Source: Planctomycetota bacterium (GTDB taxonomy: Bacteria; Planctomycetota; Brocadiia; CAIUPP01). From it: a stretch of DNA of 64,000 nucleotides. Below are positions 16,495 to 59,286 of this stretch, in pieces (the first letter of the stretch is position 1; the number at the start of each line of letters is the position of its first letter). The position numbers were made by a program, and so were the translations under genes. The notes under the pieces are model-generated. The model did no database searches. It saw only the letters and a program-made list of their open reading frames with translations, and was not told where the DNA came from. The stretch is from contig JAKJEM010000006.1 in assembly GCA_022705425.1 (NCBI GenBank), positions 25,858-89,857 of the forward strand, given 5' to 3'.

Positions 16495-16765
16495 GGGTAC
16501 CCTGCCATGGCTGAAAAGGACGTGGAACCACGGAACACAGCGCAACCATGTGAGGAGAGTCTATCACAACGCGATGTCCAGAACAAGTTCTTGCCGCTTG
16601 CATCCCGCTTGAAGGCCGGCAGGGGATGTCGTAGGTGACCGAAACGCTTCAGCCTGTGAGGGCGCGCGGTCGCGCCACCCCACAGTCGCGGGCTCGGGAG
16701 ACGCGGCAACGCCTTGGCCCGCGCCGAATCGGGCAAGACCGTTCCACGCCGACAGGCACCCCCTC

Positions 16766-17141: not shown

Positions 17142-17520
17142 CCCGGAAGGGCTGTGGTTCTCGAAAGCGGATCGGGGCTTGCGTGCGGCGGACTTGGCGC
17201 TGGCCACGACCCCGCCGATGCCCGACATTGCCTGCTACCACGCACAGCAGTGCGCCGAGAAGTATCTGAAGGGCTATCTCATCGTGCACGGGACGCGCTT
17301 TCGTTACGTCCACGAGCTCGCGTATCTGGCGAGTCTCTGCGCGAAGACGGACCCTTCCTTCGGCGATCTGCTTGAGGCGGCAGCGACCCTGCAAGACTAC
17401 GCCTCCGACGTCCGCTATCCCGAGGAGGACGGCGCTGAACCGACAGCGCAGGATGCCATGGAGGCGATTCGCCTGGCGCGGCTCATCCGGGACTACATCC
17501 GCACGAGGGTCGTTGCCTGA
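17128..17520 (+). CDS. HEPN-domain protein (toxin of a HEPN/MNT module)
   Basis: ATG at 17128 overlaps the MNT gene by 14 nt. R-x4-H motif RFRYVH plus a HEPN helical pattern. Confidence 0.7.
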   Translation: MSAASPEGLWFSKADRGLRAADLALATTPPMPDIACYHAQQCAEKYLKGYLIVHGTRFRYVHELAYLASLCAKTDPSFGDLLEAAATLQDYASDVRYPEEDGAEPTAQDAMEAIRLARLIRDYIRTRVVA

Positions 17521-26793: not shown

Positions 26794-27588
26794 TCAGTCG
26801 CCGGGCTTTCGACGCCCGATGATGACGTGGGGACGTCCGGAGATGGGGTTGGGCTGCGTGAGGACGGAGGCGCTGTAGGTTCGGCGGATGGCGTCGGACG
26901 TCACGACGGACTCGGGCGCGCCCTCGGCGACGATCCGGCCCTCCTGCATCAGGTAGAGGCGGTCGCAGTATTCCGAGGCGAGGTTGAGGTCGTGCAGGAC
27001 GGCGAGGACGGTCAACCCTTCGCGTTCATTCAGGGAGCGGATGAGGTCGAGGGCCGCCAGCTGGTGTCCGAGGTCGAGATGGCTGGTCGGTTCATCGAGC
27101 AGGAGGAGTTCGGGCTGCTGGGCGAGGCACATGGCCAGGAAGGCGCGGCGTCGTTCGCCGCCGCTGATCTGAGTGATGGGGCGATCGGCGAGGCCGGCCA
27201 CGTCGGCGAGGGCGAGGGCTTGCTCGGCGGCCTGGCGGTCGGCGGTCGTCTCCCCCGCCAGCAGGCCCAGTCGCGCCGTTCGGCCCATCTGCGCCACCTC
27301 GCGCACGGTGAAGGGAAGGTCGAGGACGATGTCCTGCGCAAGGCAGGCCATGATACAGGCGCGCTCGCGCCAGGGGATCTCGCCCAGGGGCCGGTCCTTG
27401 AGCGTGACGCGTCCGGCCAGCGGGCGCTTGACGCCGGTGACGACGCGGAAGAGGGTGGTCTTGCCGCAGCCGTTGGGGCCGATGAGCCCCACGAACTCGC
27501 CGCGCCGGACGCGGAGGTCGGCGCCGTGCAGGACGGCGCGTTCGCCGTAGGCGGCGCGGACGCCTTCGACGCGGAGAAGGTCATCCAT
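26794..27588 (-). CDS. Iron-siderophore/cobalamin-type ABC transporter ATP-binding protein (BtuD/FepC-like)
   Basis: Walker A GPNGCGKTT, signature LSGGERRR, Walker B LLLLDEPTSHLD. Confidence 0.85.
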   Translation of the reverse strand: MDDLLRVEGVRAAYGERAVLHGADLRVRRGEFVGLIGPNGCGKTTLFRVVTGVKRPLAGRVTLKDRPLGEIPWRERACIMACLAQDIVLDLPFTVREVAQMGRTARLGLLAGETTADRQAAEQALALADVAGLADRPITQISGGERRRAFLAMCLAQQPELLLLDEPTSHLDLGHQLAALDLIRSLNEREGLTVLAVLHDLNLASEYCDRLYLMQEGRIVAEGAPESVVTSDAIRRTYSASVLTQPNPISGRPHVIIGRRKPGD

Positions 27589-28549
27589 GGGTCGTCCTCC
27601 GGCGCTTGAGGAGGTAGAGGAAGAAGGGGCCGCCGAGGAAGGCGGTGATGACGCCGACGGGGATGTCGCGCGGGGCGATGACGGAGCGTCCGAAGGCGTC
27701 GGCGAGGACCATGAAGGCGGCGCCGGCGAGGGCGGAGGCGGGCAGAAGGCGGCGATGGTCGGGCCCGACGATCAGGCGCATGGCGTGCGGGACGATGAGT
27801 CCGACGAAGCCGATGAGGCCGCAGGCGGAGACGACGGCGCCGGTGATGAGGGAGGCCAGGACGAAGAAGAAGAACTTGGCGCGCTCGACATTGAGGCCGA
27901 CGTGCGCGGCGGGTTCTTCGCCCAAGGTCATCACGTTGAGGTCGCGCGCGCGGAGGGCGGCCAGGAGTATGCCGGCGACGACGACGACGGCGACCAGTAC
28001 GAGAAGGGGGACGTCGAAGATTTGAAGGTTTCCCAGCAACCACCAGAGGACGTTGTGGACCTCCTCGGCCGTGGAGAGGGAGACGAGGAACATGAGGAGG
28101 CTTCCGAGAACGGCGCTGACGACGACGCCGGCGAGGAGAAGGGTATGGGTGGGTGCGCCTCCGCCGGGCGTGCGCGCGAGGCCGTAAACGAGGGCCATCG
28201 AGGCGGCGGCGCCCAGGAAGGCCGCCGCGGGGAGGGTCCAGGCGCCCCACACGCCGAGTCCGGCCAGGATGGCCGTCACGGCGCCCAGTCCGGCCCCGGA
28301 AGAAACGCCGAGGACGTAGGGATCGGCCAGCGGGTTTCGCAGGAGGGCTTGGAAGAGGACGCCGGCAACGGAGAGCCCGGCGCCGGCGACGAGACCGAGG
28401 AGGATGCGCGCGACGCGCAGGCGAATGATGCCGGACTCGGGCATTTCGGCGATGGGGACGCGCGCCGCGCCGAGGAATAGGGCCGCGAGGAAGGCCAGCA
28501 GGACCACGCCGATCAGCAGGGGGTAAAGGGCGAAGGGTCTCACGCGCAC
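27581..28549 (-). CDS. FecCD-family ABC transporter permease (BtuC-like)
   Basis: FecCD motifs (LGVSSGAGLGAV..., GLIGFVGLIVPH). GTG start about 28543-28549. 8-nt overlap with the ATPase gene. Confidence 0.8.
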   Translation of the reverse strand: MRVRPFALYPLLIGVVLLAFLAALFLGAARVPIAEMPESGIIRLRVARILLGLVAGAGLSVAGVLFQALLRNPLADPYVLGVSSGAGLGAVTAILAGLGVWGAWTLPAAAFLGAAASMALVYGLARTPGGGAPTHTLLLAGVVVSAVLGSLLMFLVSLSTAEEVHNVLWWLLGNLQIFDVPLLVLVAVVVVAGILLAALRARDLNVMTLGEEPAAHVGLNVERAKFFFFVLASLITGAVVSACGLIGFVGLIVPHAMRLIVGPDHRRLLPASALAGAAFMVLADAFGRSVIAPRDIPVGVITAFLGGPFFLYLLKRRRTTHG

Positions 28550-28619
28550 GGGCGCGCTCCCGGCACGCAGCGTGCGCGCACATCGGCGGGACGGCGGGGT
28601 GGCGCCGGACGGCGGGGGA

Positions 28620-29576
28620 TCACGTGGGACCATCCTCAGCCGGCGGGAGGGGGACGCCGGTCTCCCCCGTCGTTCTCGGGAGGAGGGCGGGGGCGGGGCG
28701 CGTGTTCAGACGGTCGGCGAGCAGACGCAGCCCGAGCAGGAGCCGCGGGCCGGGCCGAAGGAGGAGGTCGGGGGGAATGTCGGTGATGATGCGCCCCTGT
28801 CGCACGGCGGCGACCTTGCTCCATCCGATGCGATTGGCCAACTGCATCGCTGCCTGGCCCGCGGGCGTCATGTAACAGAGGACGACGACTTCAGGGTTCC
28901 ACTCGACAACCTTCTCGGGGTTGACGATGGGATACATCTGGGCGATCTCGCCGGCGACGTTGAAGCCTCCGGCCTTGGCGACAACGTCATGGAGAAAGGA
29001 GGTCCCGCCCGCGGTGGTGAGGGGATCATGCCAGACCTCGATGAAGACGCGCGGGCCTGTTTCGCCGGGATTGCGGCGATAGGAGCCGGCGATCACGGCG
29101 ACTTCGGACTGCAAGCGGGCGGCGAGGGCATCGGCCTCGCCGACGCGTCCGGCGGCTTCGCCCACGGTGCGGACGCTCTCGAAGATCTCGGTGAAGCTGT
29201 TCTGATAGGTCCGGACGAAGGGGACGCCGGCGGCCTTCATGGCCGCGACGAACTCCGGGGTTTCCATGCTGCTGCCGATGACGACGGTAGGCTTGAGGGA
29301 GAGAATCTTCTCGATACTGGGGGCGTTGAAGGTCCCGATGCAGGCGATCTTCTTTGCTTCGGGGGGATAGTCGCAGCAGTCGGTCACGCCGACGAGTTGC
29401 TTCTCGGCCCCGAGGGCGAAGACGAGCTCGGTCACAAAGGGACCGAGGGAGACGATGCGGCGCTGCTCGGGCGGGAGGGGCAGCGCCGTCTTGGGTCGGG
29501 GCGCTTCGCGCTCGCAGGCGGCGAGGAGCGTGGAAAGGGCGAAGAGCGCCCAGAGCATTCGTGCGGACGTCTTCAT
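28620..29576 (-). CDS. Periplasmic cobalamin/siderophore-binding lipoprotein (BtuF-like, class III SBP)
   Basis: Lipoprotein signal LSTLLAAC; RIVSLGPFVTELVFALG...VVIGS class-III binding-protein pattern. Confidence 0.75.
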   Translation of the reverse strand: MKTSARMLWALFALSTLLAACEREAPRPKTALPLPPEQRRIVSLGPFVTELVFALGAEKQLVGVTDCCDYPPEAKKIACIGTFNAPSIEKILSLKPTVVIGSSMETPEFVAAMKAAGVPFVRTYQNSFTEIFESVRTVGEAAGRVGEADALAARLQSEVAVIAGSYRRNPGETGPRVFIEVWHDPLTTAGGTSFLHDVVAKAGGFNVAGEIAQMYPIVNPEKVVEWNPEVVVLCYMTPAGQAAMQLANRIGWSKVAAVRQGRIITDIPPDLLLRPGPRLLLGLRLLADRLNTRPAPALLPRTTGETGVPLPPAEDGPT

Positions 29577-29592: not shown

Positions 29593-30339
29593 TCAGGCGC
29601 GCATTGCCCAGGCGCAGAGCGTCACAGCGGTCAGTGTTTCGCCGATCTCGCAAGAGGCGCCGAGGGTATCGCCCGTGGCGCCGCCGATCCTCCTTCGGCA
29701 CAGGGCGTTGAAGAGAATCGTGCCGGCGACGACGACGCCCATCGCCACGACGCCGGCGCGCCCGCCGAGGACCCAGCCGACGGCGACCATCAGGAGGGTG
29801 GCCACGACGAGCGGGGTCCAGGCGCGTCCGCGATAGAAGACGGCGGCCAGGCCGCCCTCGGGGCGGGCGTAGGGCAGAGCGGCCATCTGGATGACAATGG
29901 CGCAGCGCCCGGCGAGGGGCATCAGGACGGCGGCCTTCCAGAAGCCGGCCAGGGAGAGTGAGGCGAGGGAGGCCGTCTTGAGCATGAGGACGCTGCCGAT
30001 GGCGAGGGCGCCCATGGCGCCGATGCGGCTGTCCTTCATGATCTCGAGAATGCGCTCCCTGGGGCGTGAACTCATGAAGCCGTCGGCGGTATCGGAAAGG
30101 CCGTCCACGTGGAGTCCGCCGGAGAAAAGGGCGAGGAGGATCACCACGGCGGCGGTGGCGGGCCAAGGAGGCAGGAGATGGCTGAGTCCGAAGGCGGCCG
30201 CGCCGGCGACGAGGCCGAGCAGGAGTCCAACGACGGGAAAGAAGGCGCTGCTGCCGGCGAGGTCCTCCTCGGACGTGCCCCACGCGCCGGGCAGAGGGAG
30301 GATGGTGAGGAAGCGCAGGGCGGCGATGAACTCTTTCAT
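29593..30339 (-). CDS. cobS: Adenosylcobinamide-GDP ribazoletransferase (cobalamin synthase)
   Basis: Start MKEFIAALRFLTILPLPG; CobS membrane protein pattern. ATGA overlap with cobT. Confidence 0.85.
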   Translation of the reverse strand: MKEFIAALRFLTILPLPGAWGTSEEDLAGSSAFFPVVGLLLGLVAGAAAFGLSHLLPPWPATAAVVILLALFSGGLHVDGLSDTADGFMSSRPRERILEIMKDSRIGAMGALAIGSVLMLKTASLASLSLAGFWKAAVLMPLAGRCAIVIQMAALPYARPEGGLAAVFYRGRAWTPLVVATLLMVAVGWVLGGRAGVVAMGVVVAGTILFNALCRRRIGGATGDTLGASCEIGETLTAVTLCAWAMRA

Positions 30340-31403
30340 GCGTTGGCCTTGGAGACGGCGGCTTCGTCGAACGTGGCGACGCGCGTCAGGACGGCGGCGG
30401 CGGCTTCGAGCAGGGGCATGGCCAGCGCGGCGCCGGTGCCCTCGCCCAGACGAAGGTCGAGGTCGAGCAGGGGTTTCCTGCCCAGCCGGTCGAGCATGGC
30501 GGCGTGGCCGGGTTCCTTGCTCCGGTGCGACGCAATCATATACTCCCGCGCGGACGGACACAAGGCGGCGGCGATGAGGGCGCCGGCGGTGGAGATGAAG
30601 CCGTCCACCAGGACGGGCTTGCGCGCAGCGGCGGCGCCGAGGATGAGTCCGGCGATGCCGCCGATCTCGAATCCGCCGACCTTGCTCAGGACGTCGAGCC
30701 CGTCTTCGGCGCGGGGCTGGTTGACGCGCAGGGCGCGCGCGATGACGGCGCGCTTGCGGGAGAGCTGCGCGTCGTCAATGCCGGTGCCGCGTCCGGTGAC
30801 GTTTTCGAGCGATTGGCCGGTCATCACGGCGGCGATGGCGGCGCTGGGGGTGGTGTTGCCGATGCCCATGTCGCCGGTGCCGAAGAGGTCGGTTCCGGGG
30901 GCGAGTTCGCGGGCGAGTTCGATACCGGCGAGGAGGGCGCGCAGGGCTTCGTCGCGGGACATGGCGGGCCCGACGGCCATGTTGCGCGTGCCGGGGCCGA
31001 TGCGCCTGCCCACGACGCTTCCGGCGCGAACGAGGTCGGCGAGGTCCTCGGCCACGCCCATGTCCACAACGACGACGCGTGCGCGCGCCACGGCGGCGAG
31101 CGCGTTGATGCCGGCGCCGCCGGCGACGAAATTGCGGACCATCTGAGGGGTAACGGCCTGGGGAAACCTGCTGACGCCTTCGGCGACGACGCCGTGGTCG
31201 GCGGCGAAGGTGACGACGGCGCGCCGCGCGACGGGCGGGTTGAGGGAGCGCGTCATGCCGGCGAGGTCCTCGGCGAGGTCCATGAGGCGTCCGAGCGCCC
31301 AGTGGGGCATGGTGAGTTGATCGAGGCGGGCGCGGGCGCGGGCGCGCCAGGCAGGGTCCTGCGGGGCGATGTCGGCCAGGGTGCGTTCAAGGCGTTCCTT
31401 CAC
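30336..31403 (-). CDS. cobT: Nicotinate-nucleotide--dimethylbenzimidazole phosphoribosyltransferase
   Basis: GDMGIGNTT motif; 355 aa; GTGA overlap with cobU. Confidence 0.9.
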   Translation of the reverse strand: MKERLERTLADIAPQDPAWRARARARLDQLTMPHWALGRLMDLAEDLAGMTRSLNPPVARRAVVTFAADHGVVAEGVSRFPQAVTPQMVRNFVAGGAGINALAAVARARVVVVDMGVAEDLADLVRAGSVVGRRIGPGTRNMAVGPAMSRDEALRALLAGIELARELAPGTDLFGTGDMGIGNTTPSAAIAAVMTGQSLENVTGRGTGIDDAQLSRKRAVIARALRVNQPRAEDGLDVLSKVGGFEIGGIAGLILGAAAARKPVLVDGFISTAGALIAAALCPSAREYMIASHRSKEPGHAAMLDRLGRKPLLDLDLRLGEGTGAALAMPLLEAAAAVLTRVATFDEAAVSKANA

Positions 31404-31951
31404 GGTGTTTCTCGCTTCTTGAGTGTTGTGGGAATGCCGCAGAGGACGAGGACGACCTCATCGGCGGCGTCGGCCAGGACCTGATTGCAGCGCCCGGCCA
31501 GGTCGCGGAAGCGGCGGGCGAGGGCGTTCTCGGGGATGATGCCCCAGCCGACTTCGTTTGTCACGAGGAGCACGGTGCCCGGATGCCGGGCACAGGCTTC
31601 GGCGAGGCGTGTGGCGCAGCGGGCCATCGCGGACTCGTCAAAGCGCCGCTTCTCCCCTTCGGCATGGTACATGAGGTTGTTCACCCACAGGGTAACGCAG
31701 TCCACCAGGACGGCGTTGGCCTTGCGCTCGCGGTCGAGGACCTCTTGGAGATTGACGGTCTCTTCCACGGTCGTCCAGCCGCGCCCGGCGCGCTCCTCGC
31801 GGTGTCGGCGGATTCGCTCGACCATTTCCGCGTCGAGATCGGGGCAGGTGGCCACGAAGAGACGGGGGCCGGGCAGTCCCTCGGCGCGGTTTTGCGCGTA
31901 GCCGCTCTTGCCGCTGCGGCTGCCGCCGGTGACCAGGATCGTCCGTGCCAT
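31400..31951 (-). CDS. cobU: Bifunctional adenosylcobinamide kinase / adenosylcobinamide-phosphate guanylyltransferase
   Basis: P-loop LVTGGSRSGKS; 183 aa. Confidence 0.85.
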   Translation of the reverse strand: MARTILVTGGSRSGKSGYAQNRAEGLPGPRLFVATCPDLDAEMVERIRRHREERAGRGWTTVEETVNLQEVLDRERKANAVLVDCVTLWVNNLMYHAEGEKRRFDESAMARCATRLAEACARHPGTVLLVTNEVGWGIIPENALARRFRDLAGRCNQVLADAADEVVLVLCGIPTTLKKRETP

Positions 31952-31981: not shown

Positions 31982-32584
31982 TCAGGGATTCACGGGGACC
32001 AGTTCTGCGAGGACACCCAGGCCGTCGGCGGTCTTGACGGCGCACAAGGTCCCCGGCGCGACGGCGAAGGCAAGGGCGTGGCGCGGTTCGAGGCCGAGGA
32101 GGCGGCAGAGCATGGCGCGCACGACGCCGCCGTGGGTGACGACGAGGGTGGTCCCGCGCTCGGAGGCGACGCGAGCGGTGAATCGTTCGACGCGGCGCTG
32201 GAAGTCCGCCAAGGCCTCGCCGCCGGGAAAGGCGAAATCGGGGGCCAGGCGCGCCCAGTCCTCGACGCGGGCGGGGTCGCTCTGGGAGATCTCCATGAAG
32301 CTCTTCCCCTCCCAGAGGCCGAAGTCCACCTCGCGCACGTCGTCGGCGATGACGGGCGGCGCATCGAGCACGGAGGAGATCGCGGCAGCGGACTGGCGCG
32401 CGCGGAGTCTGGGGCTGCAATAGCAGCGCGCGATGGGCGCCCAGCGGCGCAGGCGGGGCGCCACGGCGGCGAGTTGCGCGACGCCTTCCTCCGAAAGGGC
32501 GAGGTCGGTGCTGCCGACGTAGCGTCCCTCCCATTTCCAGCCGACGCAACCGTGGCGCAGAAGGAGCAACGTGCTGTCGGACAT
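31982..32584 (-). CDS. cobC: Alpha-ribazole phosphatase (histidine phosphatase family)
   Basis: LLLLRHG catalytic His motif, VVTHGG; 200 aa. Confidence 0.75.
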   Translation of the reverse strand: MSDSTLLLLRHGCVGWKWEGRYVGSTDLALSEEGVAQLAAVAPRLRRWAPIARCYCSPRLRARQSAAAISSVLDAPPVIADDVREVDFGLWEGKSFMEISQSDPARVEDWARLAPDFAFPGGEALADFQRRVERFTARVASERGTTLVVTHGGVVRAMLCRLLGLEPRHALAFAVAPGTLCAVKTADGLGVLAELVPVNP

Positions 32585-32605: not shown

Positions 32606-32866
32606 CTACTTCGGCGGGGCGGCCGCCCCCGGCGGAGGAATGCGCGCCTTGCACTTGGGGCAGGCCGCCACCGGGCTGCCGGGGGCCGCTCGAACGAGTT
32701 CCTCCGGGCGAAGCCTGGCTCCGCAACCGGGACAGACGACCTGGGCGACCGCCTTGAGCGACGGGGGCGGGGCTTGAACGAGTCTGGGGGGCGGCTCCTT
32801 CTTGGAGCAGCCGGGCAGGAGCGCGACGGCGACGCCGACGGCGAGCAACGCCGGGATGGGTTTCAT
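32606..32866 (-). CDS. Small zinc-ribbon lipoprotein (CPGC...CPKC)
   Basis: Lipobox LLPGC, two CxxC pairs, Pro-rich tail. Embedded in the riboswitch-controlled operon. Confidence 0.55.
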   Translation of the reverse strand: MKPIPALLAVGVAVALLPGCSKKEPPPRLVQAPPPSLKAVAQVVCPGCGARLRPEELVRAAPGSPVAACPKCKARIPPPGAAAPPK

Positions 32867-32911
32867 GGCACGGTTCCTTCAGGAGATGGGTTGGCCGAAA
32901 GGCGGCGCAGT

Positions 32912-33955
32912 CTATCGGTAATCGAACAACGAGTTGTTGTCCGGTCCGAACCAACCCACGCCCAGTGCGGCGCGCTCGCCGGCAGTGATGTCCGGCTGTC
33001 CGGTCCAGTAATCGTAGGTATCGGTGGTCCAGTCCATGCGGCGCGAGGAGACGCTCTGATCGAGCCAGAGGACGTTGGCCGCGCCGTCATGGCGGAAGTG
33101 AATGGTGGGCGAGGCGAAGCCCCAGCTCGTTTCTTCCTTGCCCATGCCGTCGGGGCTGGCGCTGATGAAGCGCGGCGGCTGGACGTTGGACTGCTCGATG
33201 ACGTAGAGCTTTCCGTTGACCTTCTTGACCATTCCGGCGTCGCTGAAGAGAACGGTTTCGTGGGGGGACTTGAACTTGGCGGACTGGGCGGGGGTTTCGT
33301 ACGGCGCGGCGGTCAGGAAGACGTAATTCCAGCTTGCGTCGTAGCCCCAGGCGTCCCAACGGGATTCGCTTCCACCGCAGTAGGTGGTGTTGTATCCATA
33401 GCCTCCCGCGCCCGCCTCGAAGGCCTCGATGCCGGCGCCGGAGGTCTTTTCGTAGAGGCCGCGGAAGGTGGGGCACATTTTGACCGCCTGCATCTTGAGG
33501 ATGGTGTTGGCGTCCGGGGGCGCGTAGGCGTCAATTTCGGCCTGGGTGGAGGGGAAACGCAGGGGTTCGATCCCGAGGTAGGAGGCCAGGTAGCCGAAGC
33601 GCGGGTCGAAGGCGTCGTCGGTGGTCTTGCGCCAGCCGTGCCAGCGCCAGTAGCCGGCCGACCAGGCGCTTCCCGGCGGGGTGACGTGCATGTCGGCATT
33701 GCCGGGCATGTAGTACTGGCCGTAGTCGCTGAGATACATTTCCATGGCCGTGCCGAGTTGATGGAGGTTGTTCTTGCAGCTCGTTTGCCGTCCCTTCTCG
33801 CGAGCCGACGCCAGCGCGGGGAGAAGCATCCCCGCGAGCACGGCGATGATCGCGATGACGACGAGGAGTTCGATCAGCGTGAACCCCGCCGGTCCGAATG
33901 CCACCGCCCCGTCCCACAACGCCTTCAAGCGACGACCCAACCCACGCGCGCGCAT
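32912..33955 (-). CDS. DUF1559 protein with type IV pilin-like N-terminal cleavage/methylation domain
   Basis: [63 protein letters not shown] 5 nt upstream. First gene downstream of the B12 riboswitch. Confidence 0.85.
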
Positions 33956-34104
33956 GACGACCTCCTCTCTGCCGGCGGGCTTTTCTCCGAAGCCCGCAAC
34001 ATGCTCGACGCTTCCGAACGGAGAGGAGGGCTGTGGGAAGCCGCGCGGAGTCAGGCCGACCGCCCCGGTCGTCCGACATCCGCCGCCGCGGAAAGCGGCG
34101 CGGT

Positions 34105-34300
34105 CTTCACCGGCCCTGACCTCGAAGCCGTTCTGAAGCGCGCACAGGCAGGTCTTCTGGCTCTCGGATCATCCTACCGGCCGCGCCTTCCCGTTCCACA
34201 CGATGGAACAGTGGCCACGCGGCGTTCGTCCCCGATCACAGCGGCGGGACCGCGACGGATTCGCACCGTCTTCCCTTTTCAGCCCGTACGTCGGGCCACC
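34105..34300 (-). promoter_or_regulatory. Cobalamin (AdoCbl) riboswitch with SD-sequestering expression platform
   Basis: The minus strand reads GGTGGCCCGACG...AAAGGGAAGACGGTGCGAATCCGTC...CCGCTGTGA...AGCCAGAAGACCTGCCTG (B12 box). Downstream, CCCTCCTCTC (34030-34021) is complementary to the RBS GAGAGGAGG (33969-33961). Confidence 0.85.
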
Positions 34301-34314
34301 TGTGAACATAGTTT

Positions 34315-34344
34315 TATTATCGCACCGGACGCGGCAGGAGTCAA
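34315..34344 (-). promoter_or_regulatory. sigma70-like promoter TTGACT-N18-ATAATA driving the riboswitch/B12 operon
   Basis: Reverse complement: cacTTGACTcctgccgcgtccggtgcgATAATAaaac. The predicted TSS lies just 5' of the aptamer. Confidence 0.45.
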
Positions 34345-34413
34345 GTGACGCCGACAGGAAGGGCGATTGCGCCCCCCGGCGGAGGGGAGTATACTGCCGA
34401 CAACGCGCGGACG

Positions 34414-39094: not shown

Positions 39095-41266
39095 CTAGAG
39101 CAGGAAACGGCGGCTGATCATTCGGCGGAACTCGCGCCAGAGTTGAACGCCCAGGGGGTCGCTGCTGACGACGAAACGCGCGCGCCCGGTGGCGCCGACG
39201 GGCAGCGTCTCGACGTCGCGATCGAGGATCACGTCCACGCGATACCAAGGCATGAGGGTGCGGTCTCGCGCCTTGGGATCCAGGAGGACCGGTCCGCCGC
39301 CGGCGTCGGTGAGGGAGACGTCCGGCGGGGTGAAGGTGGCGGAGGGGTGGATGCGCTCGATTCGGCCTTCATAGACGCGCGCGGGATCGCTGCGGAACTT
39401 GATGCGGACGGGCCGGTCGGCGGCGGCACGAATAGCGGGAAGGTCGGTGGTTTCGACCACAACGCAGACGCGGAGTCGGTCGGCGGAGGCGACGCGGCAG
39501 AAGACGTCGCCGAGTTGGAGGTACTTGCCGCGCGTTTCGTCGAGGTCCGGGGCGTCGAGGCGGCCGTCGAAGGGGGCGCGGAAGGTGAGGGCGCGGGCGC
39601 GCGCCTGGAGGGTGTCGAGACCCTTGTGCAGGCCGGCGAGGCGCACACGCTCGGCGCGCGCGGCGCCCTGGTCCTGGGCTTCGAGCATCCGCAGGCGGGC
39701 GGCGGATCCCCGGATGCGGGCTTCAAGTTCGGCGATCTGGAAGTCCAACGTCTCATTGCGCAGTGTGCCGAGGACGCGGTCCTTGGACACGCGCTCGCCG
39801 TCGTGGACGGAAACCTCGGTGAGAAAGCCGGGCCACTCGGCGCGAAGGACAGCGAGGTCCGCCGGCTCCAGGACGCAGGGGCAGCGGACGCCTTCGGGCA
39901 GCGGCACGGCCACGAGCAGGGCAGCCAGGACGGCAACGCCGGCGGCCAGGACGCCGGCCGCGCGCCAGCGCACGGGGCGGGTGGCGGGGTCGAAGAGGCA
40001 GTACTTGACCATCTTGACGGCCGGCGTCACGAGCCAGAGGATGGCGATAATGACCGCAAGGAGGATTCCCAGGATGAAGAGCTGCGAGGCGATGAAGAGG
40101 ATGATTCCGACGGCAATGATCGTGCGATAGATGGTGGCGAGGATGCCGTAGCCGAGGTACCAGGCGCGCTCGCGCGGGGTGGCCGGGGTCATCGTCACCT
40201 GCGCGCCGATGAGGCGCTTCTTGAGCAGATCGGTGATGTACTTGGTCGAGCGCTGGCGGAGGTTGGGGATTTCGATCAGGTCGGCGAGGATATAGTAGGC
40301 GTCATAGCGAAGGAGCGGGTTTCCGTTGAAGAGGAGGGAGGAGACGCTGGCGACGAAGATGACGTTGTAGCAGACGCTCTTGAGGACGCCGGGTTCCAGG
40401 GAGAGCCAGGCGAAGAGGGCGAGGGCGGCGACAAAGAACTCGACCATCATTCCAGCCGCGCCGATGAGGATCTTCTGCCACTTGGACTGAAGCCCCCAGG
40501 CCGGGGTGACATCCACATAGGGCATGGGCATGAAGATGATGAGCATGATCCCCATGCGATGGACCTCGACGCCGTGACAACGCGCGGCATAGGCGTGGCC
40601 GAACTCGTGGAGGGACTTGACGATGACGAAAGCCAGATAGAGGTAGAGGAGGTTGTCGGGGGCGAGGATTCCGTTGGCGGGCTGGGCGAGGGCGCGGATG
40701 TTGTAGGCCAGGGCGACGGCGGCCGCGCCGACGACGGCCAGCCACAGGAAGAAGACCCAGCGGCTGAAGACCCAGCGGACCCAGGGCATCGTTTCGATGA
40801 GGAAACGGTCGGGGTCGAGCAGGGGAATTGTGGCATACATGAAGTTGGAGAGGCGCCCGAGGGTGCGCTGACGTCGCTTCTTGGCCGCGCGTTCGACGTG
40901 CCACTTGCTGTCGTCGGCGCCTTCGGGGGTGGTCAGGTTGGCCTGGCGGAGCATGAAGGCGAACTGGGCGAGGTCGCGGAAGGACGGAGCCCGGGAGCCG
41001 AGCTTCGCCTTGAGGGCGTCGTGGATTTCGCCGAGGGTGGTCCGCCCGTCGAGGCGGTCGAGGATTTCGCGCTCGTCGCGTCCGATGCGGTAGAACTGGA
41101 GGGTGATGGGGTCCTGCAGGACAAACCACTGCTCCCCGCGGAAGCTCTGCGGGGTGACGACGGCGTCGTGCCGGAGACGGGGCTTGAGGCGGCGGAGTTG
41201 GGGGCCGTATTCCTCGAATTCGAGGTCTCGGCTGAGGTCGTCCTCGGGCTTTTCGACTCGACTCAT
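39095..41266 (-). CDS. Fusion protein: N-terminal soluble domain, site-2-protease-like peptidase M50 membrane domain (HEFGH), and a C-terminal HlyD/membrane-fusion-protein periplasmic domain
   Basis: HExxH (SLHEFGHAYAARCHG) within multiple TM helices; C-terminal biotin-lipoyl-like, coiled-coil (ELEARIRGSAARLRMLEAQDQ) and beta-barrel segments. One-nucleotide gap to the upstream gene. Confidence 0.75.
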   Translation of the reverse strand: MSRVEKPEDDLSRDLEFEEYGPQLRRLKPRLRHDAVVTPQSFRGEQWFVLQDPITLQFYRIGRDEREILDRLDGRTTLGEIHDALKAKLGSRAPSFRDLAQFAFMLRQANLTTPEGADDSKWHVERAAKKRRQRTLGRLSNFMYATIPLLDPDRFLIETMPWVRWVFSRWVFFLWLAVVGAAAVALAYNIRALAQPANGILAPDNLLYLYLAFVIVKSLHEFGHAYAARCHGVEVHRMGIMLIIFMPMPYVDVTPAWGLQSKWQKILIGAAGMMVEFFVAALALFAWLSLEPGVLKSVCYNVIFVASVSSLLFNGNPLLRYDAYYILADLIEIPNLRQRSTKYITDLLKKRLIGAQVTMTPATPRERAWYLGYGILATIYRTIIAVGIILFIASQLFILGILLAVIIAILWLVTPAVKMVKYCLFDPATRPVRWRAAGVLAAGVAVLAALLVAVPLPEGVRCPCVLEPADLAVLRAEWPGFLTEVSVHDGERVSKDRVLGTLRNETLDFQIAELEARIRGSAARLRMLEAQDQGAARAERVRLAGLHKGLDTLQARARALTFRAPFDGRLDAPDLDETRGKYLQLGDVFCRVASADRLRVCVVVETTDLPAIRAAADRPVRIKFRSDPARVYEGRIERIHPSATFTPPDVSLTDAGGGPVLLDPKARDRTLMPWYRVDVILDRDVETLPVGATGRARFVVSSDPLGVQLWREFRRMISRRFLL

Positions 41267-41267
41267 G

Positions 41268-43172
41268 TCACCACCACAGGCGCAGACGCAGCCAGTTGAG
41301 GAGCTTGCGGGAGGCCACCCAGGTCACGTTGCGCCGCCCAGCCTTGAGACGGGCCACGCCTTCAATGCCGGGGCGAAGCGAGCCGTCGGGATTGGGGACA
41401 AGGGCCTCGGCGACATAGACGTTTTCGCCGTCGCGGGTTTCGGGCATGGGGTGCAGTTTGGAGAGCTTGAAGGGAACGACCTCATCGGGCTGGGCGCGGG
41501 TGGTGAACTCGCCCTGCATTCCGAGGCGGACGTGGGCGATGTCCTCCTGGGCGATGGAGATTTCGAGGATGAGTTTGTCGAGGGGGGCGACTTCGAGGAG
41601 TTCCTGCCCGGTGCGCACGGGGCGTCCGATATCGCGGGAGAGGTCGCCGCGCAGGAGCAGTCCGGGAAAATCGGCCTCGACGCGGGCCTTTTCGGCGTGG
41701 CGCTGGAGGAGGGCGATCTCGGCGGCAAGGGCGTCGGCGCGCGCCTGGGCTTCGGCATAGCGCGAGAGCTTCTGTTCGGCGAGATAGGAGGCCATTTCCT
41801 TCTCGACGCTGGCGCGCTTGGCGAGAGACTCGCGGAGCTGGAGGTCAATCTCGTCGCGGTCGAAGCTGAGGAGGAGGCTTCCCACGGCGACCTCGTCGCC
41901 GGGGCGAAGGGGCGCCTCTTTGATGGTCGTGTCATACGGGGCGGCGTAGATGCGGCGGAAGGAGGGCGTGAGGACGCAGTTGCCGGAGAGGTTGAAGTCC
42001 CACCGCCCGAAGACCGCAAAGGCGAGAAGGGCCAGAAGGGCGGCGATGGCGGCGCGCCGCCCGGGGTGCTCGCGCCCGAAGACCCAACGGACGGCGGCGC
42101 GCGTGGCGTCGCCGAGGCGGCGGGCAAGGGGACGTTCATTCAACTGGGCCAGGCGGAGGATGGGGCCGATCTGGCCGGCGGCGACGTCAATGACCTCGCG
42201 CGCGCCGGGGGGGAGTTCGTCGGCGGCGAATTCGAGGGTCCAGACACCGACAAGTTCGCGGTCCTTGCGGAGTGGAACGCTGTAGATGACGCGCGCGCCG
42301 GCCTTGGCGGCGAGTTCGTCGTGCTGGGGGCTGCGGCTGCGCTGGGCGGCGCGGGCCTCTCCGGCGAGCGCGACGGCATAGAGGATGGGTTCGCCGGCGA
42401 GGGCCGTCTCGGTCTGCGCGGCGCGCAGGAGGCGAACCATGTTGCTTCGCGCGTCGAGGGTGTCTTCACCGGAGACGGCGGCGACGGAGGTCTTTGCGCC
42501 GCGGACGAAGCCGAAGGTGACGCGTTCGGCGTTGAAGGCGGTCTTGGCGCGGTTGGCCGCGACGTGCGCCATATCGTGCGATCGGGTGAAGGCGGTCATC
42601 TCCCCCACCAGCGCCCAGGCGGCGGAGAGGGCGCGGTAGGCGGCGCGGCCCTCTTCGGACCCGCGACGGGTGGAATAGAGCCCCATCATGGCCGCAACCA
42701 GCCGAAGCATGGCCAGGCGTCCGTCGGTGAGGACGCCGGACTTGAGGCCGACGGCGAGCGTGGCGCACTGCGCGGGGGATTCCGGGGCGCACAGGGGAAT
42801 CGCCAGCGCAACGAGGTCGCCCCCGGCGGCGACGCGCTCGGGGGGTTCGGGGAGGGAACGGGTCTGGATGACGCCGGACTGAACGGCGGCGGTGGCGGCT
42901 TCGGAGAGGCGCTGAGCCCAGGCCTGGGCCGTGGCTTCAGTGACGCGGGGGGCGATCTGCATCACGGGTCGCAGGGCGCCGCCGTCCTCGCGCCGCCACA
43001 GGGCGCCGTGCCAGGCTTCGGAAAGGCCGACCAGTCCGCGCAGGACTTCGGCCATGACGCCCTCTGCGGCGCCATCGGCAAGGCACATCTTCTCGAGGCG
43101 CTCGATCAGCGCCACGAGGGGCCAGGTTTGTCCCGGCGCGCCGGGCTGCGTCCGTTGTTCGCCGCTCATCAT
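41268..43172 (-). CDS. GAF-GAF-TM-HlyD: membrane fusion (HlyD-family) protein with a roughly 380-aa cytoplasmic tandem GAF-like sensor domain
   Basis: GAF-like ends (VALAIPLCAPESPAQCATLAVGLKSGVLTD...; VIYSVPLRKDRELVGVWTLEFAADELPPGAREVIDVAAGQIGPIL); TM AAIAALLALLAFAVF; HlyD periplasmic portion with coiled-coil and beta-barrel. Confidence 0.7.
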   Translation of the reverse strand: MMSGEQRTQPGAPGQTWPLVALIERLEKMCLADGAAEGVMAEVLRGLVGLSEAWHGALWRREDGGALRPVMQIAPRVTEATAQAWAQRLSEAATAAVQSGVIQTRSLPEPPERVAAGGDLVALAIPLCAPESPAQCATLAVGLKSGVLTDGRLAMLRLVAAMMGLYSTRRGSEEGRAAYRALSAAWALVGEMTAFTRSHDMAHVAANRAKTAFNAERVTFGFVRGAKTSVAAVSGEDTLDARSNMVRLLRAAQTETALAGEPILYAVALAGEARAAQRSRSPQHDELAAKAGARVIYSVPLRKDRELVGVWTLEFAADELPPGAREVIDVAAGQIGPILRLAQLNERPLARRLGDATRAAVRWVFGREHPGRRAAIAALLALLAFAVFGRWDFNLSGNCVLTPSFRRIYAAPYDTTIKEAPLRPGDEVAVGSLLLSFDRDEIDLQLRESLAKRASVEKEMASYLAEQKLSRYAEAQARADALAAEIALLQRHAEKARVEADFPGLLLRGDLSRDIGRPVRTGQELLEVAPLDKLILEISIAQEDIAHVRLGMQGEFTTRAQPDEVVPFKLSKLHPMPETRDGENVYVAEALVPNPDGSLRPGIEGVARLKAGRRNVTWVASRKLLNWLRLRLWW

Positions 43173-43281
43173 TCAAGCTTCCCGACGTCCGCTGCGCCCT
43201 CATCGCGCGCGGCGTCATCCTCTGAAAACGGCCCTGGATTCCCCTCGGGCGGCGTCGCCGTTCGACGCGGGCCCGTCCCCC

Positions 43282-43623
43282 TCACCCGAAGCGCGGGCGC
43301 GGCTGGTCCGGCGGGCGCGGCGGAGGCGCGCCGGGGATGACGTTGATTGTGCCGTGGACGGATTCGTATTGCTGGAGCACGCCGCCGAGGGCCAGGGCCA
43401 GTCGCTTCGCCGCCGGATAGGTCATGATGACGCGGCTTGAGACGTCCACTTCCGTGGGTGTGCCCGGCTGGGGCGGGTTGAGGTTGAGCGCGAAGTTGAG
43501 GATGATCTCCTCGGGGGTGCTGGTGATGACGGCGAAGTTGGCGTAGTTCGTCACCGTCTTTTCCCAGTGCATTCGCAGCATACCGCTGTGGTCGGGCTTC
43601 TCATCCGGCTTCTTGTCGGCCAT
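43282..43623 (-). CDS. DUF3467-family small protein
   Basis: YANFAVITSTPEEIILNF...SSRVIMTYPAAKRLALALGGVLQQYESVHGTI matches the DUF3467 pattern. GGGAG RBS; 113 aa. Confidence 0.6.
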   Translation of the reverse strand: MADKKPDEKPDHSGMLRMHWEKTVTNYANFAVITSTPEEIILNFALNLNPPQPGTPTEVDVSSRVIMTYPAAKRLALALGGVLQQYESVHGTINVIPGAPPPRPPDQPRPRFG

Positions 43624-43639
43624 GCGTGTTCTCCCAGAG

Positions 43640-44494
43640 TTACCGGCTGAGCGGAACGGAGAGCGCGCCCTTGGCGCCGGCGGCGATACGTCCGCCGGGA
43701 TTGGGCAGAGTGAACTTGACGCGGTACATGCCGCTGGCGGGGTCCACGACGTTGTCCACGACGGCGACGTTGCAGGAGAGGGTCTGGCCGGGCATGTTTT
43801 CGAGGGTCAGGCGCCCTTGGGTTCCGGGCGCGATGCGACCGGAGGTGGCAATGGGCAGGTTGGCGATGACGTAGAGGGGGTCCACGCAGCAGATGCTGGC
43901 GACGGGGGTGCGCTCCTGGACGGCCTCCCCTTCGCGTTTGTAGATGCGGACGACGGTGGCGTCGTGGGGGGCGCGGACCTGGGTGCGTCGGATGGCTTCG
44001 TCGTCGCGCTGGACGGCGACTTCGATCATCTTGAGCTGGGCTTTGGCGTTATCCACGCCCAGGCGCGCGAGTTCCATCTCCAAGCGGGCCTTGTCGTGGT
44101 CCTCGTGCGACATGATCTTCTTCTCGAAGAGGGCGGCGACGCGGTCGAGGTCCATCTTGCGCTGGGTGAAGGTGGCCTCGGAGGCCGTCACCTGTACGCG
44201 GGCGGACTCGAGGCGAGAGAGGGTGACGGCGCGCTCGGCCTTGAGCAGGTCGGAGCGCAGTTCGACGAGGAGTTGCCCTTCCTTGACGGCATCGCCCTCT
44301 TCGCAGTGGACCTTCTGAACGACGCCGCCGGCGTCGGTGGCCAGTTCCACCATGCGGAAGGGGACGGTGAAGGCCGTGGCTTCCGCGACCTCCGGCCCCT
44401 TGGGCGCGGGGGCCTGGCCCGGTGCGGAGGATGCCGCCCAGAGCAGCCAAGCGCAAAGACCCGCCGCACAGGCGGGCTGTAGCGAGATTCGCAA
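43640..44494 (-). CDS. Secreted periplasmic adaptor / membrane fusion protein (RND/HlyD_D23-like)
   Basis: TTG start with GGAGGAGGAG RBS; signal peptide MRISLQPACAAGLCAWLLWAASSAPGQA; biotin-lipoyl (GVVQKVHCEEGDAVKEGQLLVELRS), helical hairpin, beta-barrel (VRAPHDATVVRIYKREGEAV). Confidence 0.7.
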   Translation of the reverse strand: MRISLQPACAAGLCAWLLWAASSAPGQAPAPKGPEVAEATAFTVPFRMVELATDAGGVVQKVHCEEGDAVKEGQLLVELRSDLLKAERAVTLSRLESARVQVTASEATFTQRKMDLDRVAALFEKKIMSHEDHDKARLEMELARLGVDNAKAQLKMIEVAVQRDDEAIRRTQVRAPHDATVVRIYKREGEAVQERTPVASICCVDPLYVIANLPIATSGRIAPGTQGRLTLENMPGQTLSCNVAVVDNVVDPASGMYRVKFTLPNPGGRIAAGAKGALSVPLSR

Positions 44495-44533
44495 GGGGTT
44501 CTCCTCCTCCTGAGACACGACCGTCCTTGAAGG

Positions 44534-44563
44534 AGGATATCGCGGGCGGGGCTTCCGTGTCAA
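44534..44563 (-). promoter_or_regulatory. Candidate promoter TTGACA-N17-GATATC for the adaptor/M50 cluster
   Basis: Reverse complement: ccgaTTGACAcggaagccccgcccgcgATATCCtcc. Placement supports the TTG 44494 start. Confidence 0.3.
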
Positions 44564-44688
44564 TCGGCGGACGGGGGCGAGGGCTTCGATCCAAGGGTCG
44601 CTCACGGGTCGGGCAAGGCGCGACTTGCCTCTGTCCGCGTCAAGTGCTACGCTCGCCCGTCGGCTGACGGTACGGCATCTCGCGGGGA

Positions 44689-46113
44689 ATGCGTTTGCGG
44701 AGGCATCCAGTGGAATGGTTGTTCGACGATGCGGCGCTGGACCGTTCTGCGGGCGTGCGGCGCACGCTGGCGATGCCCCGAAAGGAACCCGTTCCGGTAC
44801 TGCGCCCGGAGCGCCCGTGGGAGCAGGCCGGGCTGGTGGGAACCCTTTCACCCTTCTACGACCGCACGCGCCGGCTCTTCCGGCTGTGGTACCGCGCGCG
44901 GATGCCGGGCGCGCCGCGACGCACCTTTCTCTGCTATGCCGAAAGCCCGGATGCCGTCCATTGGACGCGCCCGGCGCTGGGGTTGTCGGATTTCACCGGG
45001 TTCGCCGGGAACAACATTGTGCGTGAGATCGGCGAAGCGGATTCGGTCTTCTGGAACATCGTGTTCGACGCGGACGATCCGGATCCGGCGCGGCGCTACA
45101 AGGCGCTGGGGTTCGACCATACTCCCGAGGGCAACGGGATCTGCGTAGCCTACTCCCCGGACGGGTTCCGCTGGCCGACGCCGCCCCGGCAGGCGCTGCC
45201 GACGAGCCAGGTGACCGACGCCGACTGCCTCTTCCCGCGGCGCGACCCACTGTCCGGGAAGTGGGTGGGGTTCTTTCGCCCCCGGACGGCGCCCAAGCGC
45301 CGCTTCCTTGGCTTGTCCGAGAGCGATGATTTCGACCATTGGACGCGCCCGCGCATGCTCTTGACGCCGGACGCGCAGGACGAGGAGTGGACGGAGTTCT
45401 ACGGTCTGGCGGCGGCGTGTCTGGGTGAGTGGCGCGTGGGGGCGATGTGGGTCTATCGCAACCACCCGGACTACTCGCCGATGACCACGGAGTTGGTGTA
45501 TTCGCGCGAGGGACGCGCGTACCACCGCGCCTTCCCTCGCCGGAAGTTCGTCCCCCTCGGGCCCGCCGGGGCGTTCGACTGCCGGATGATCATGCCGGTC
45601 GCGCTCGTGGAGCACGGCCCGGAGTTCCTGATCTTCTACAGCGGCTGGAACCGCGAGCACGGCTCGGACCGCGGGATGCCCATGCAGAACAAGGAGGCCG
45701 CCCTGTGCGAACCCCTGAAGACGGGGATCGGCCTGGCGCGGGTGAACAAACACCATCTCTGCGGCCTGCAGGCGGAGGGGAGCGGCGTCATTGAGAGCCG
45801 CTGGCTCTGCAACTACGGCGAGAGCGGCGTGCTCCTTGCGGCAGACATCGCTCCGAGTGGAACAATCCTCGTGGAGTTGCTCGATCAGTACGGGAAGGTC
45901 CTTCCGGGATGGTCCGGCAGAGAGAGCCGTCTGGCGCCGTGTGGCGACGGAAGGTTCCGTTGCCTGTGGAGCGGGGACCGGTCCGCCCAACCGGGGCGCG
46001 CGAGTCCCGAAGGCGGGACGATTGGACATGTGCTGAAACTTCGGCTGTGCATCCACAAAGCGACGCTCTGCGGTTTCCAGGCGGGCGATGCGCCGGGCGC
46101 CGGACCGGCTTAG
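44689..46113 (+). CDS. Glycoside-hydrolase-like beta-propeller protein; paralog of 23644-25137
   Basis: N-terminus VEWLFDDAAL...ERPWEQ aligns with VDWTLIDAG...DRPWED of the paralog; further shared motifs throughout. Confidence 0.55.
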   Translation: MRLRRHPVEWLFDDAALDRSAGVRRTLAMPRKEPVPVLRPERPWEQAGLVGTLSPFYDRTRRLFRLWYRARMPGAPRRTFLCYAESPDAVHWTRPALGLSDFTGFAGNNIVREIGEADSVFWNIVFDADDPDPARRYKALGFDHTPEGNGICVAYSPDGFRWPTPPRQALPTSQVTDADCLFPRRDPLSGKWVGFFRPRTAPKRRFLGLSESDDFDHWTRPRMLLTPDAQDEEWTEFYGLAAACLGEWRVGAMWVYRNHPDYSPMTTELVYSREGRAYHRAFPRRKFVPLGPAGAFDCRMIMPVALVEHGPEFLIFYSGWNREHGSDRGMPMQNKEAALCEPLKTGIGLARVNKHHLCGLQAEGSGVIESRWLCNYGESGVLLAADIAPSGTILVELLDQYGKVLPGWSGRESRLAPCGDGRFRCLWSGDRSAQPGRASPEGGTIGHVLKLRLCIHKATLCGFQAGDAPGAGPA

Positions 46114-59279: not shown

Positions 59280-59286
59280 CCGGGCC

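Follow-up and report, generated by a model that had tools for sequence, protein, structure and literature searches.

In a 64,000-nt stretch of planctomycete DNA (contig JAKJEM010000006.1; the whole stretch is called the window below), a cobalamin riboswitch was found in front of nine tightly packed minus-strand genes, the first of which encodes a prepilin-type protein of the DUF1559 family. This arrangement is probably a B12-repressed corrinoid-salvage operon, with the first product being a pilin-fold envelope protein of the RWHG subfamily that serves as an accessory in corrinoid acquisition. Sequence data give good support to the predicted B12 regulation of the pilin-like gene, and a role of its product in corrinoid acquisition is strongly supported, because the pairing with the riboswitch is conserved across phyla independently of cob and btu genes and because the partners of the protein are homologous to proven B12 binders. 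DUF1559 proteins are the largest paralogous family of planctomycete genomes, with 68–74 copies per genome, and have been published as being of unknown function (PMC10632474, PMC2754498). No literature linking DUF1559, prepilin-type proteins or pseudopilins to cobalamin riboswitches was found.

Search of the whole window with the Rfam covariance models (cmscan) gave a sole match, to RF00174 (Cobalamin), with a score of 125.9 bits against a gathering score of 31.5, an E-value of 3e-31, and coverage of model positions 1–189 of 189, i.e. the full length. The same aptamer scored 217 bits with R1, a purpose-built covariance model. The junction strings of the aptamer core, GGGAAGACGGUGCGAAUCC and CCGCUGUGA, and the B12 box AGCCAGAAGACCUGCC were all present. 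The original prediction, based on the sequence without database searches, had described a textbook cobalamin riboswitch on the minus strand and had quoted the strings GGGAAGACGGTGCGAATCC, CCGCTGTGA, a B12 box AGCCAGAAGACCTGCC, CCTCCTCTC and GAGAGGAGG; the Infernal/Rfam check confirmed the former, and all five strings were located in the window. Immediately 5′ of the riboswitch, with its 3′ edge meeting the start of the aptamer model, is a sigma-70-like promoter (Table 1).

Close homologues of the pilin-like protein, with lengths of 310–370 aa and full-length identities of at least 40%, form a separate subfamily that was set apart from generic DUF1559 proteins in the database search. Genomic contexts were examined for seven members with 41–100% identity, comprising ten loci and 7 distinct contexts, and in all ten loci RF00174 was directly upstream on the same strand, with scores of 103–126 bits. 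Among these close homologues, the cob/btu operon was shared only by an 84%-identical relative (L003). The unit in L004 and L009 consisted of a promoter, the riboswitch and the pilin-like gene alone, the promoters being at the position equivalent to that in the window, 5′ of the aptamer, and an independent strong rpoB promoter came next; L004 had a terminator-like site after the pilin-like gene as well. In L007, the pilin-like gene was the first behind the switch and the next same-strand gene was about 280 nt further on, and in L006 the order behind the switch was a DUF4465 protein, a 306-aa protein and the pilin-like gene. The aptamers of these loci were unusually alike, as expected if switch and gene travel together. 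The window locus itself was also observed on an NCBI metagenome-assembled genome contig (GCA_029549405.1) and on one Joint Genome Institute (JGI) metagenome contig.

To extend the sample, one genome per GTDB species was scanned with two subfamily motifs, which gave 340 confirmed relatives; the best 80 loci, of which Hydrogenedentota and Planctomycetota/Phycisphaerae supplied most and Armatimonadota a few, were analysed. Riboswitches were counted with R1 (built from the first aptamers) and Rfam together, R1 having missed two divergent riboswitches (upstream in L071, and in L045) that were detected by Rfam. Of the 80 loci, 49 had a cobalamin riboswitch upstream in the orientation of the pilin-like gene, and none had one upstream in the opposite orientation. 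In most of the other loci, the upstream end was missing or same-strand genes ran to the edge of the 3-kb flank. Tandem pairs of cobalamin riboswitches before the pilin-like gene were observed in Hydrogenedentota (L019:2078-2254/2527-2683, L020:409-591/858-1026, and L032:2150-2326/2505-2683). In an exhaustive profile search, the RWHG subfamily comprised about 765 clusters (50% identity) at E ≤ 1e-30, and 221,816 clusters, representing generic pilin-like/DUF1559 proteins, were collected at E ≤ 1e-10.

Generic DUF1559 proteins with an N-terminal helix 70–80% identical to that of the window protein and with different heads were used as controls, one of the loci being from the metagenome of L003. 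No riboswitch was found at E ≤ 1 in the seven control loci (L091-L097), which hold 9 generic DUF1559 genes. The co-occurrence of riboswitch and DUF1559 gene, for which the original prediction had named a comparative check, was thus confined to the subfamily in this comparison. The control genes are flanked by GntR/LacI-type regulators and by glycoside hydrolases or polysaccharide lyases, a setting which suggests that members of the DUF1559 family generally belong, as substrate-specific components, to loci for nutrient utilisation. The enzymes at these loci (e.g. L095:1364-5233 and L096:2832-7443) include DUF4838, GH42, GHL10, rhamnogalacturonan lyase and pectate lyase, and L095 has three tandem DUF1559 paralogues.

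The genes sharing the riboswitch with the pilin-like gene in relatives point to B12 as well. In Hydrogenedentota, riboswitch and pilin-like gene are separated by a gene for a secreted protein beginning with '...DPWADxVxxY', and members of this family, called BtuH-like here, also occur in Phycisphaerae and Armatimonadota loci. When compared with the PDB, the family profile matched residues 391–659 of 8BLW chain B (E 6e-28) and residues 223–492 of 7BIZ chain A (E 1e-22), both matches spanning the whole B12-binding domain. The latter structure is BtuH2 of Bacteroides thetaiotaomicron with bound B12, a protein of roughly picomolar affinity that is required for uptake (PMC8941943); the former is the BtuB1-BtuG1 complex, in which BtuG1 ends in a C-terminal BtuH domain of ~250 residues (PMC10404256). 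A DUF4465 protein is under the same switch as the pilin-like gene in L006, L060 and L078, and DUF4465 (PF14717) is a BtuJ-type B12-binding domain (PMC13398666). Other recurrent secreted partners under these riboswitches (L050:91-1164, L031:259-1389, L006:5084-6004, and L060:1203-2000) include a CFI-box-CTERM protein, a family of ~340–380 aa without a Pfam match, and a PEP-CTERM family weakly like LIC_13355 lipoproteins.

In 16 of the 80 loci, BtuH-like and pilin-like sequences form one continuous open reading frame (ORF), and the same was seen in independently called database proteins (Table 1). The fused ORF begins with a signal peptide and the BtuH-like domain, continues with a hydrophobic helix whose tail is Arg-rich or PEP-CTERM-like, and ends with G↓FTLIELL and the head of the pilin-like part; at other loci, a few bases are shared between the two genes. 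A prepilin site in mid-protein implies that cleavage of one product would yield two partners, each anchored in the membrane. That the BtuH-like and pilin-like proteins work together is strongly indicated by their fusion and by the conserved co-transcription of their genes. The topology predicted for the fused form would place both of its domains, including the head, on the periplasmic side of the inner membrane, at first at least, before any further sorting. Directly downstream of the fused gene in L054 (3939-3984, minus strand), a match to the Rfam small RNA Acido-Lenti-1 was observed (50.4 bits).

In three loci (L049:2235-6696, L071:257-4203, and L087:193-4095), an opposite-strand tRNA, a riboswitch with the pilin-like gene, and a second riboswitch with a TonB-dependent receptor were arranged in this order. 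The best match of the receptor was the vitamin B12 receptor model (259–292 bits, below the equivalog cutoff). Since each has its own riboswitch, the pilin-like gene and BtuB coexist there as separately regulated neighbours. The original prediction had the DUF1559 protein, together with the lipoprotein, acting in corrinoid capture at the cell surface as a stand-in for a TonB-dependent BtuB. Comparative evidence favours the B12 part of that proposal, but not the placement at the surface in lieu of BtuB, as some relatives adjoin BtuB-like genes and the window carries ExbB/ExbD.

The identification of the first gene behind the switch as a prepilin-type DUF1559 protein, also part of the original prediction, was upheld by matches above threshold to PF07596 (39 bits, gathering score 23.3, residues 50–217) and, for the prepilin N-terminus, to PF07963 (29.3 bits, cutoff 21.2) and TIGR02532 (30 bits, cutoff 16.3). 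The leader is 24 aa long, with cleavage predicted between G24 and F25 of the block F25-T-L-I-E29, and the alpha-1 helix covers residues 27–77. F25, T26, L27, I28 and E29 were invariant among 20 homologues and position −1 was G or A, indicating that the features for prepilin-peptidase processing are under selection. The head is enlarged and carries the motifs WRWHG, FDP, KxCPxF, ExGxGGYGYN, HFRH-x9-D and GWFGP, together with the invariant Cys60 and Cys161; these subfamily motifs (the first in the form WRWHGxR) and the Cys pair are retained across phyla. A high-confidence structure model of the window protein has a true pilin fold, with a long alpha-1 helix on an antiparallel beta-sheet and an enlarged head. 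The two-lobed periplasmic solute-binding fold implied by the Pfam name SBP_bac_10 was not seen in the model. No known B12-binding fold or solute-binding protein was among the Foldseek and PDB profile matches, in which only the N-terminal helix was matched; BtuK1 (9s6c) was rejected as a structural relative of the head, its Foldseek match (E 1.7, with a probability close to nil) being noise. None of the NCBIfam pilin equivalogs (GspG, PilA, ComGC, GspH and others) passed, the best being GspG with 44 bits against a cutoff of 88.9, and every match was confined to the N-terminal helix. The H-X9-DG block, after which close homologues are named at JGI, reads H289-x9-D299-Q in the window protein and ends in D-G in the subfamily consensus; TIGR04294 was not listed for the window protein at E ≤ 0.01 in the NCBIfam scan.

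The second gene encodes an 86-aa protein in which a lipobox (MKPIPALLAVGVAVALLPG followed by C) and two CxxC motifs were found by inspection. It had been described as a small zinc-ribbon lipoprotein; the LPGC lipobox and the CxxC pairs agree with a lipoprotein, but the zinc-ribbon models of Pfam stayed below their gathering scores (DZR 20.4 vs 27.3 bits, Zn_ribbon_3 17 vs 27). A lipidated or secreted protein of 83–108 aa with the pattern CxxC-x(22-23)-CxxC comes directly after the pilin-like gene in the window, L003, L005 and L013. This partner is absent from the Hydrogenedentota loci and kept only in the close planctomycete subfamily. Because the operons with this protein are exactly the ones without a BtuH-like or DUF4465 partner, we speculate that the lipoprotein could be a substitute for these.

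The leader between the end of the aptamer and the ATG at 33955 is 175 nt long. Just 3′ of P1 is a P13-like hairpin, conserved in both clades. In the planctomycete clade its stem shows compensatory changes (GGUCC/GGACU in L004, GGCU/AGCC in L007), and in Hydrogenedentota the stem has another sequence (CAACUU/AGUUG) with the CGNGG loop unchanged. P13 is the regulatory helix that kisses L5 in cobalamin riboswitches, and a kissing-loop role may be assigned to the hairpin here by analogy. L5-L13 complementarity, as inspected by eye, was suggestive and too inconsistent for a claim to be made.

An expression platform in which an anti-Shine-Dalgarno sequence pairs with the Shine-Dalgarno (SD) sequence of the first gene had been proposed. 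The complementarity is real: the 9-mer CCTCCTCTC is found within the window only at the anti-SD and SD sites against 1.2 occurrences expected per window, so that a perfect complement of the SD within a 175-nt leader is unlikely to have arisen by chance (~1e-3), and homologous leaders have C/U-rich tracts at the place equivalent to the anti-SD. However, the two are not partners in the minimum-free-energy fold, where the anti-SD pairs with GAGG..AGGGC of the P13-like region and the SD pairs with ACGGCUUC. The pairing of CCUCCUCUC with GAGAGGAGG is more likely to be one state of a three-part switch that includes the P13-like hairpin. The minus strand showed no terminator-like site from the aptamer to the first start codon (33955), and an intrinsic terminator was rejected as the platform in the window; the leader of L009 has an intrinsic terminator instead.

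The nine genes behind the riboswitch are, in order, those of the DUF1559 protein and the lipoprotein, cobC-cobU-cobT-cobS, and btuF-btuC-btuD (Table 1). As had been stated in the original prediction, the cob and btu genes are contiguous and several are coupled: spacers measure 16–45 nt, and three pairs overlap, namely cobU/cobT (4 nt), cobT/cobS (4 nt, the cobS ATG being at 30339) and btuC/btuD (8 nt). The CobC-like protein is a clear His_Phos_1 member and scored 153.8 bits with TIGR03162 against an equivalog cutoff of 162.9. Family domains of the importer were also clear (Peripla_BP_2, FecCD and ABC_tran), with NCBIfam equivalog scores below the cutoffs (BtuF 86 vs 234, BtuC 273 vs 461, BtuD 250 vs 537). 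The best NCBIfam names for the BtuC-like and BtuD-like proteins, likewise below cutoff, were B12 or corrinoid, and a B12 specificity of the importer is inferred from gene context. The operon ends at 26794 and is followed by a convergent plus-strand ORF for a membrane protein; the divergent gene upstream of the operon is LptF/G. The named relatives of the DnaK encoded in the window were all Planctomycetota, consistent with the earlier assignment to the Planctomycetes-Verrucomicrobia-Chlamydiae (PVC) bacteria. As a whole, the operon reads as a complete predicted corrinoid-salvage line, which would comprise capture or relay in the envelope by the pilin-like protein and the lipoprotein, periplasmic binding and import by BtuFCD, and assembly of the nucleotide loop on incomplete corrinoids by CobU, CobT, CobC and CobS.

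Table 1. Features of the predicted riboswitch-controlled operon in the window and ORFs fusing BtuH-like and pilin-like sequences in relatives
Feature	Position	Strand	Evidence or remark
Sigma-70-like promoter, TTGACT-17 nt-GATAAT, TG-extended	34316..34344	-	10/12 consensus matches
Cobalamin riboswitch aptamer RF00174 with B12 box AGCCAGAAGACCUGCC	34130..34318	-	125.9 bits
P13-like hairpin GGCUU-CGAGGUCA-GGGCC, CGNGG loop, just 3′ of P1	34112..34129	-	conserved in both clades
Anti-SD CCTCCTCTC / CCUCCUCUC	34021..34029	-	perfect complement of SD
SD GAGAGGAGG, ends 5 nt before ATG 33955	33961..33969	-	paired in both predicted folds
Prepilin-type DUF1559 protein, 347 aa	32912..33955	-	PF07596 39 bits, PF07963 29 bits
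Small lipoprotein, 86 aa	32606..32866	-	lipobox LPG↓C, Pro-rich linker, CPGC-x22-CPKC
CobC-like alpha-ribazole phosphatase (His_Phos_1)	31982..32584	-	His_Phos_1 167 bits
CobU, adenosylcobinamide kinase/guanylyltransferase	31400..31951	-	NF004469 189 bits > cutoff 161
CobT, nicotinate mononucleotide:dimethylbenzimidazole (NaMN:DMB) phosphoribosyltransferase	30336..31403	-	TIGR03160 443 bits > cutoff 319
CobS, cobalamin-5′-phosphate synthase	29593..30339	-	TIGR00317 152 bits > cutoff 110; start overlaps cobT stop
BtuF-like periplasmic binding protein (Peripla_BP_2)	28620..29576	-	domain match
BtuC-like permease (FecCD)	27581..28633	-	true start may be ~28543-28549
BtuD-like ATP-binding cassette (ABC) ATPase, last of row	26794..27588	-	ABC_tran domain
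Fused BtuH-like::pilin-like ORFs	L062:1066-3747, L031:1399-3690; database proteins P0255, P0336		
Further fused-ORF loci	L015, L021, L022, L034, L038, L053, L055, L067, L072, L073, L076, L079, L085, L089		

From these elements, the following mode of action may be proposed. At low intracellular cobalamin, the riboswitch would leave the SD accessible and the operon would be expressed; with cobalamin bound, the P13-like hairpin would dock onto the aptamer and anti-SD/SD pairing would stop translation. All of the elements are seen in the sequence, and the switching is conjectural. The prepilin-like protein would then enter the inner membrane, where prepilin peptidase is expected to remove the 24-residue leader at G↓FTLIE, leaving the large, presumably disulfide-stabilised head facing the periplasm, either membrane-anchored or in a short pseudopilus made by machinery encoded elsewhere. 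Gene association and fusion suggest that the head may bind corrinoid itself or dock a loaded binder, handing the ligand to BtuF-BtuCD; in relatives, a BtuH-like or DUF4465 protein would act as the binder, a part that the CxxC lipoprotein possibly takes in the window operon. Following the established pathway, CobU, CobT, CobC and CobS would add the nucleotide loop to imported precursors of the cobinamide type or rebuild it on them.

Several observations weigh against this explanation. About 6–8 relatives have no riboswitch within the 3-kb flank, and a weak promoter match (9/12) inside cobU (31564-31536) makes an internal cob promoter possible. The minimum-free-energy fold of the leader was not significantly stabler than those of shuffled sequences (z about −1.5), and because of this the platform model is offered as a suggestion. 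No recognisable B12-binding motif was found in the pilin-like protein, and no pilus or type II secretion assembly genes, secretin or prepilin peptidase were found in the window or in the flanks examined. Finally, none of the window ORFs matched BtuH-like or DUF4465 proteins, so that the relay proposed for the relatives need not hold here.

Among the other explanations, the one that survives best, although it is unlikely, is that the protein is a structural or secretory pseudopilin without corrinoid contact, which exports, anchors or displays the real B12 binders (BtuH-like, DUF4465 or CxxC lipoprotein) and is co-regulated with them for this reason. The true pilin fold and processing motif would suit such a subunit, as would the signal peptides and the PEP-CTERM-like or transmembrane anchors of the partners, the position of the prepilin site straight after the membrane helix of the partner in the fusions, and the failure to detect a B12-binding fold. 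However, the units of L004, L007, L009 and the window contain no BtuH-like or DUF4465 cargo, and a large head with deeply conserved subfamily motifs suggests a surface for recognising a ligand or partner, not a plain structural subunit.

Considerably less probable is a B12-repressed adhesin or fibre subunit for attachment to B12-producing neighbours or particles, outside any molecular uptake relay. Type IV pilin-like proteins often mediate adhesion, expression solely under B12 limitation would suit this strategy, and no assembly or transport partner is strictly conserved alongside the gene; yet its repeated co-transcription or fusion with domains that bind soluble ligands (BtuH and DUF4465) and its adjoining BtuB/BtuFCD genes point to the handling of the vitamin itself. 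That the riboswitch serves cob/btu, with an unrelated insertion of the DUF1559 and lipoprotein genes separating it from these targets, as the great number of planctomycete DUF1559 paralogues (PMC10632474, PMC2754498) and the canonical targets further down the same row in the window might suggest, is very improbable and effectively refuted by riboswitch-to-pilin-like units without any cob/btu gene in many lineages and phyla, by generic DUF1559 controls without a riboswitch, and by the apparent co-inheritance of riboswitch and gene.

An accessory role in corrinoid acquisition is thus retained as the preferred explanation. A wider scheme, which we regard as possible and rather doubtful, is that DUF1559 proteins are the substrate-recognition modules of a pilin-based nutrient capture in Planctomycetota, Hydrogenedentota and their allies, with one paralogue per nutrient locus. 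RWHG proteins would be the B12 member, taking corrinoid from BtuH-like/DUF4465 binders, or directly, in an enlarged periplasm and passing it on to BtuF-BtuCD, and BtuH-like::prepilin fusions would be cut by prepilin peptidase into 1:1 membrane-anchored partners. Such a system might be a counterpart of the archaeal bindosome and an analogue of SusD/BtuG.

A riboswitch reveals the molecule to which the cell links a gene, and in this case it marks a sharply delimited DUF1559 subfamily as B12-related; B12 scavenging would be the first concrete functional lead for any DUF1559 protein. The window protein would be an accessory of corrinoid acquisition that is under riboswitch control and is built on a fold with no earlier connection to vitamin uptake; it would be the first case in which the type IV pilin fold is linked to the uptake of a vitamin. 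The remaining DUF1559 proteins may follow a similar logic, in that generic paralogues in sugar-regulator/glycoside-hydrolase loci would fit substrate-specific capture modules. B12 exchange shapes communities in wastewater, sediments and oceans, and the catalogue of corrinoid scavenging would reach past Bacteroidota to phyla abundant in these habitats. With a soluble head of 320 residues, the question of direct binding is experimentally approachable.

Some other genes were noted in the window and the related loci. URO-D-family genes are present in the window (15424-16545, minus strand) and in L003 (103-1224), and a trimethylamine methyltransferase (MTTB) gene is present in L009 (9179-10636). 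The URO-D family includes methylcobamide methyltransferases, and these genes hint at corrinoid-dependent methyl transfer in the organisms. The minus-strand cluster at 56249-63952 encodes ExbB (61348-62013), ExbD (60893-61351), a second ExbD-sized ORF without a Pfam match (60427-60855), a DUF4159 protein, a PD40 beta-propeller protein and two TPR/YfiO-like proteins, and looks like a Tol/Exb-type energising system. Three successive genes with HlyD-type membrane-fusion domains were found at 39095-44851 (minus strand), one of which (723 aa) adds Peptidase_M50, an unusual architecture. At 16861-17520 (plus strand), a HEPN-domain protein is encoded amid sugar-modification genes (DegT aminotransferase, GFO/IDH/MocA oxidoreductase and PIG-L deacetylase).

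Compared with known systems, the closest functionally are BtuG, BtuH and BtuJ, accessory lipoproteins of Bacteroides that capture B12, the closest architecturally are ligand-binding minor pilins and pseudopilins, and the closest conceptually is the archaeal bindosome. Bacteroides BtuG, BtuH and BtuJ/DUF4465, which work with BtuB and BtuFCD, are likewise non-transporter envelope proteins behind cobalamin riboswitches with btu genes (PMC8941943, PMC10404256, PMC13398666), and relatives of the window protein have homologues of two of their B12-binding domains (the BtuH domain and DUF4465) as co-transcribed or fused partners. In contrast, the window protein has a type IV pilin fold instead of a beta-propeller (BtuG), the globular domain of BtuH or a beta-jelly roll (DUF4465), and a prepilin leader instead of a lipoprotein signal; its subfamily occurs in Planctomycetota, Hydrogenedentota and Armatimonadota, not in Bacteroidota, and the window operon has no BtuB, BtuG, BtuH or DUF4465 gene.

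Pseudopilins of type II secretion systems and type IV minor pilins with ligand-binding heads (GspG/EpsG, and the DNA-binding ComP) differ in that the window protein, 347 aa long as a whole, has a head of roughly double the usual size, that equivalog scores are far below the cutoffs, that no assembly genes are alongside, and that the gene is predicted to be riboswitch-regulated. With the generic DUF1559 (PF07596, 'SBP_bac_10') or H-X9-DG proteins of PVC bacteria, the window protein shares a Pfam score above threshold, the N-terminal helix and the C-terminal HFRH-x9-D(G) block, but it belongs to a separate subfamily with its own invariant motifs and regulatory context; the Pfam label of a solute-binding protein is not borne out by the predicted fold. 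Classical riboswitch operons such as E. coli btuB and Salmonella cob resemble the window operon in the B12-box aptamer, the SD-sequestering logic, and the downstream cob salvage and btuFCD genes, and differ in that the first regulated gene here is pilin-like, rather than encoding an outer-membrane receptor or a biosynthetic enzyme.

In the archaeal bindosome, sugar-binding proteins of Sulfolobus with class III (type IV pilin-like) signal peptides are assembled by BasEF and feed ABC importers (PMC3047682). Those proteins have classical solute-binding folds to which a pilin-like signal is attached, whereas the window protein is predicted to be pilin-folded throughout, and here no Bas-like assembly genes are nearby and the host is bacterial and diderm. 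What the two systems share is a protein for nutrient acquisition that bears a pilin-type signal and is linked in function to an ABC importer, and the wider DUF1559 family is likewise found in substrate-specific nutrient loci with a sugar regulator and glycoside hydrolases.

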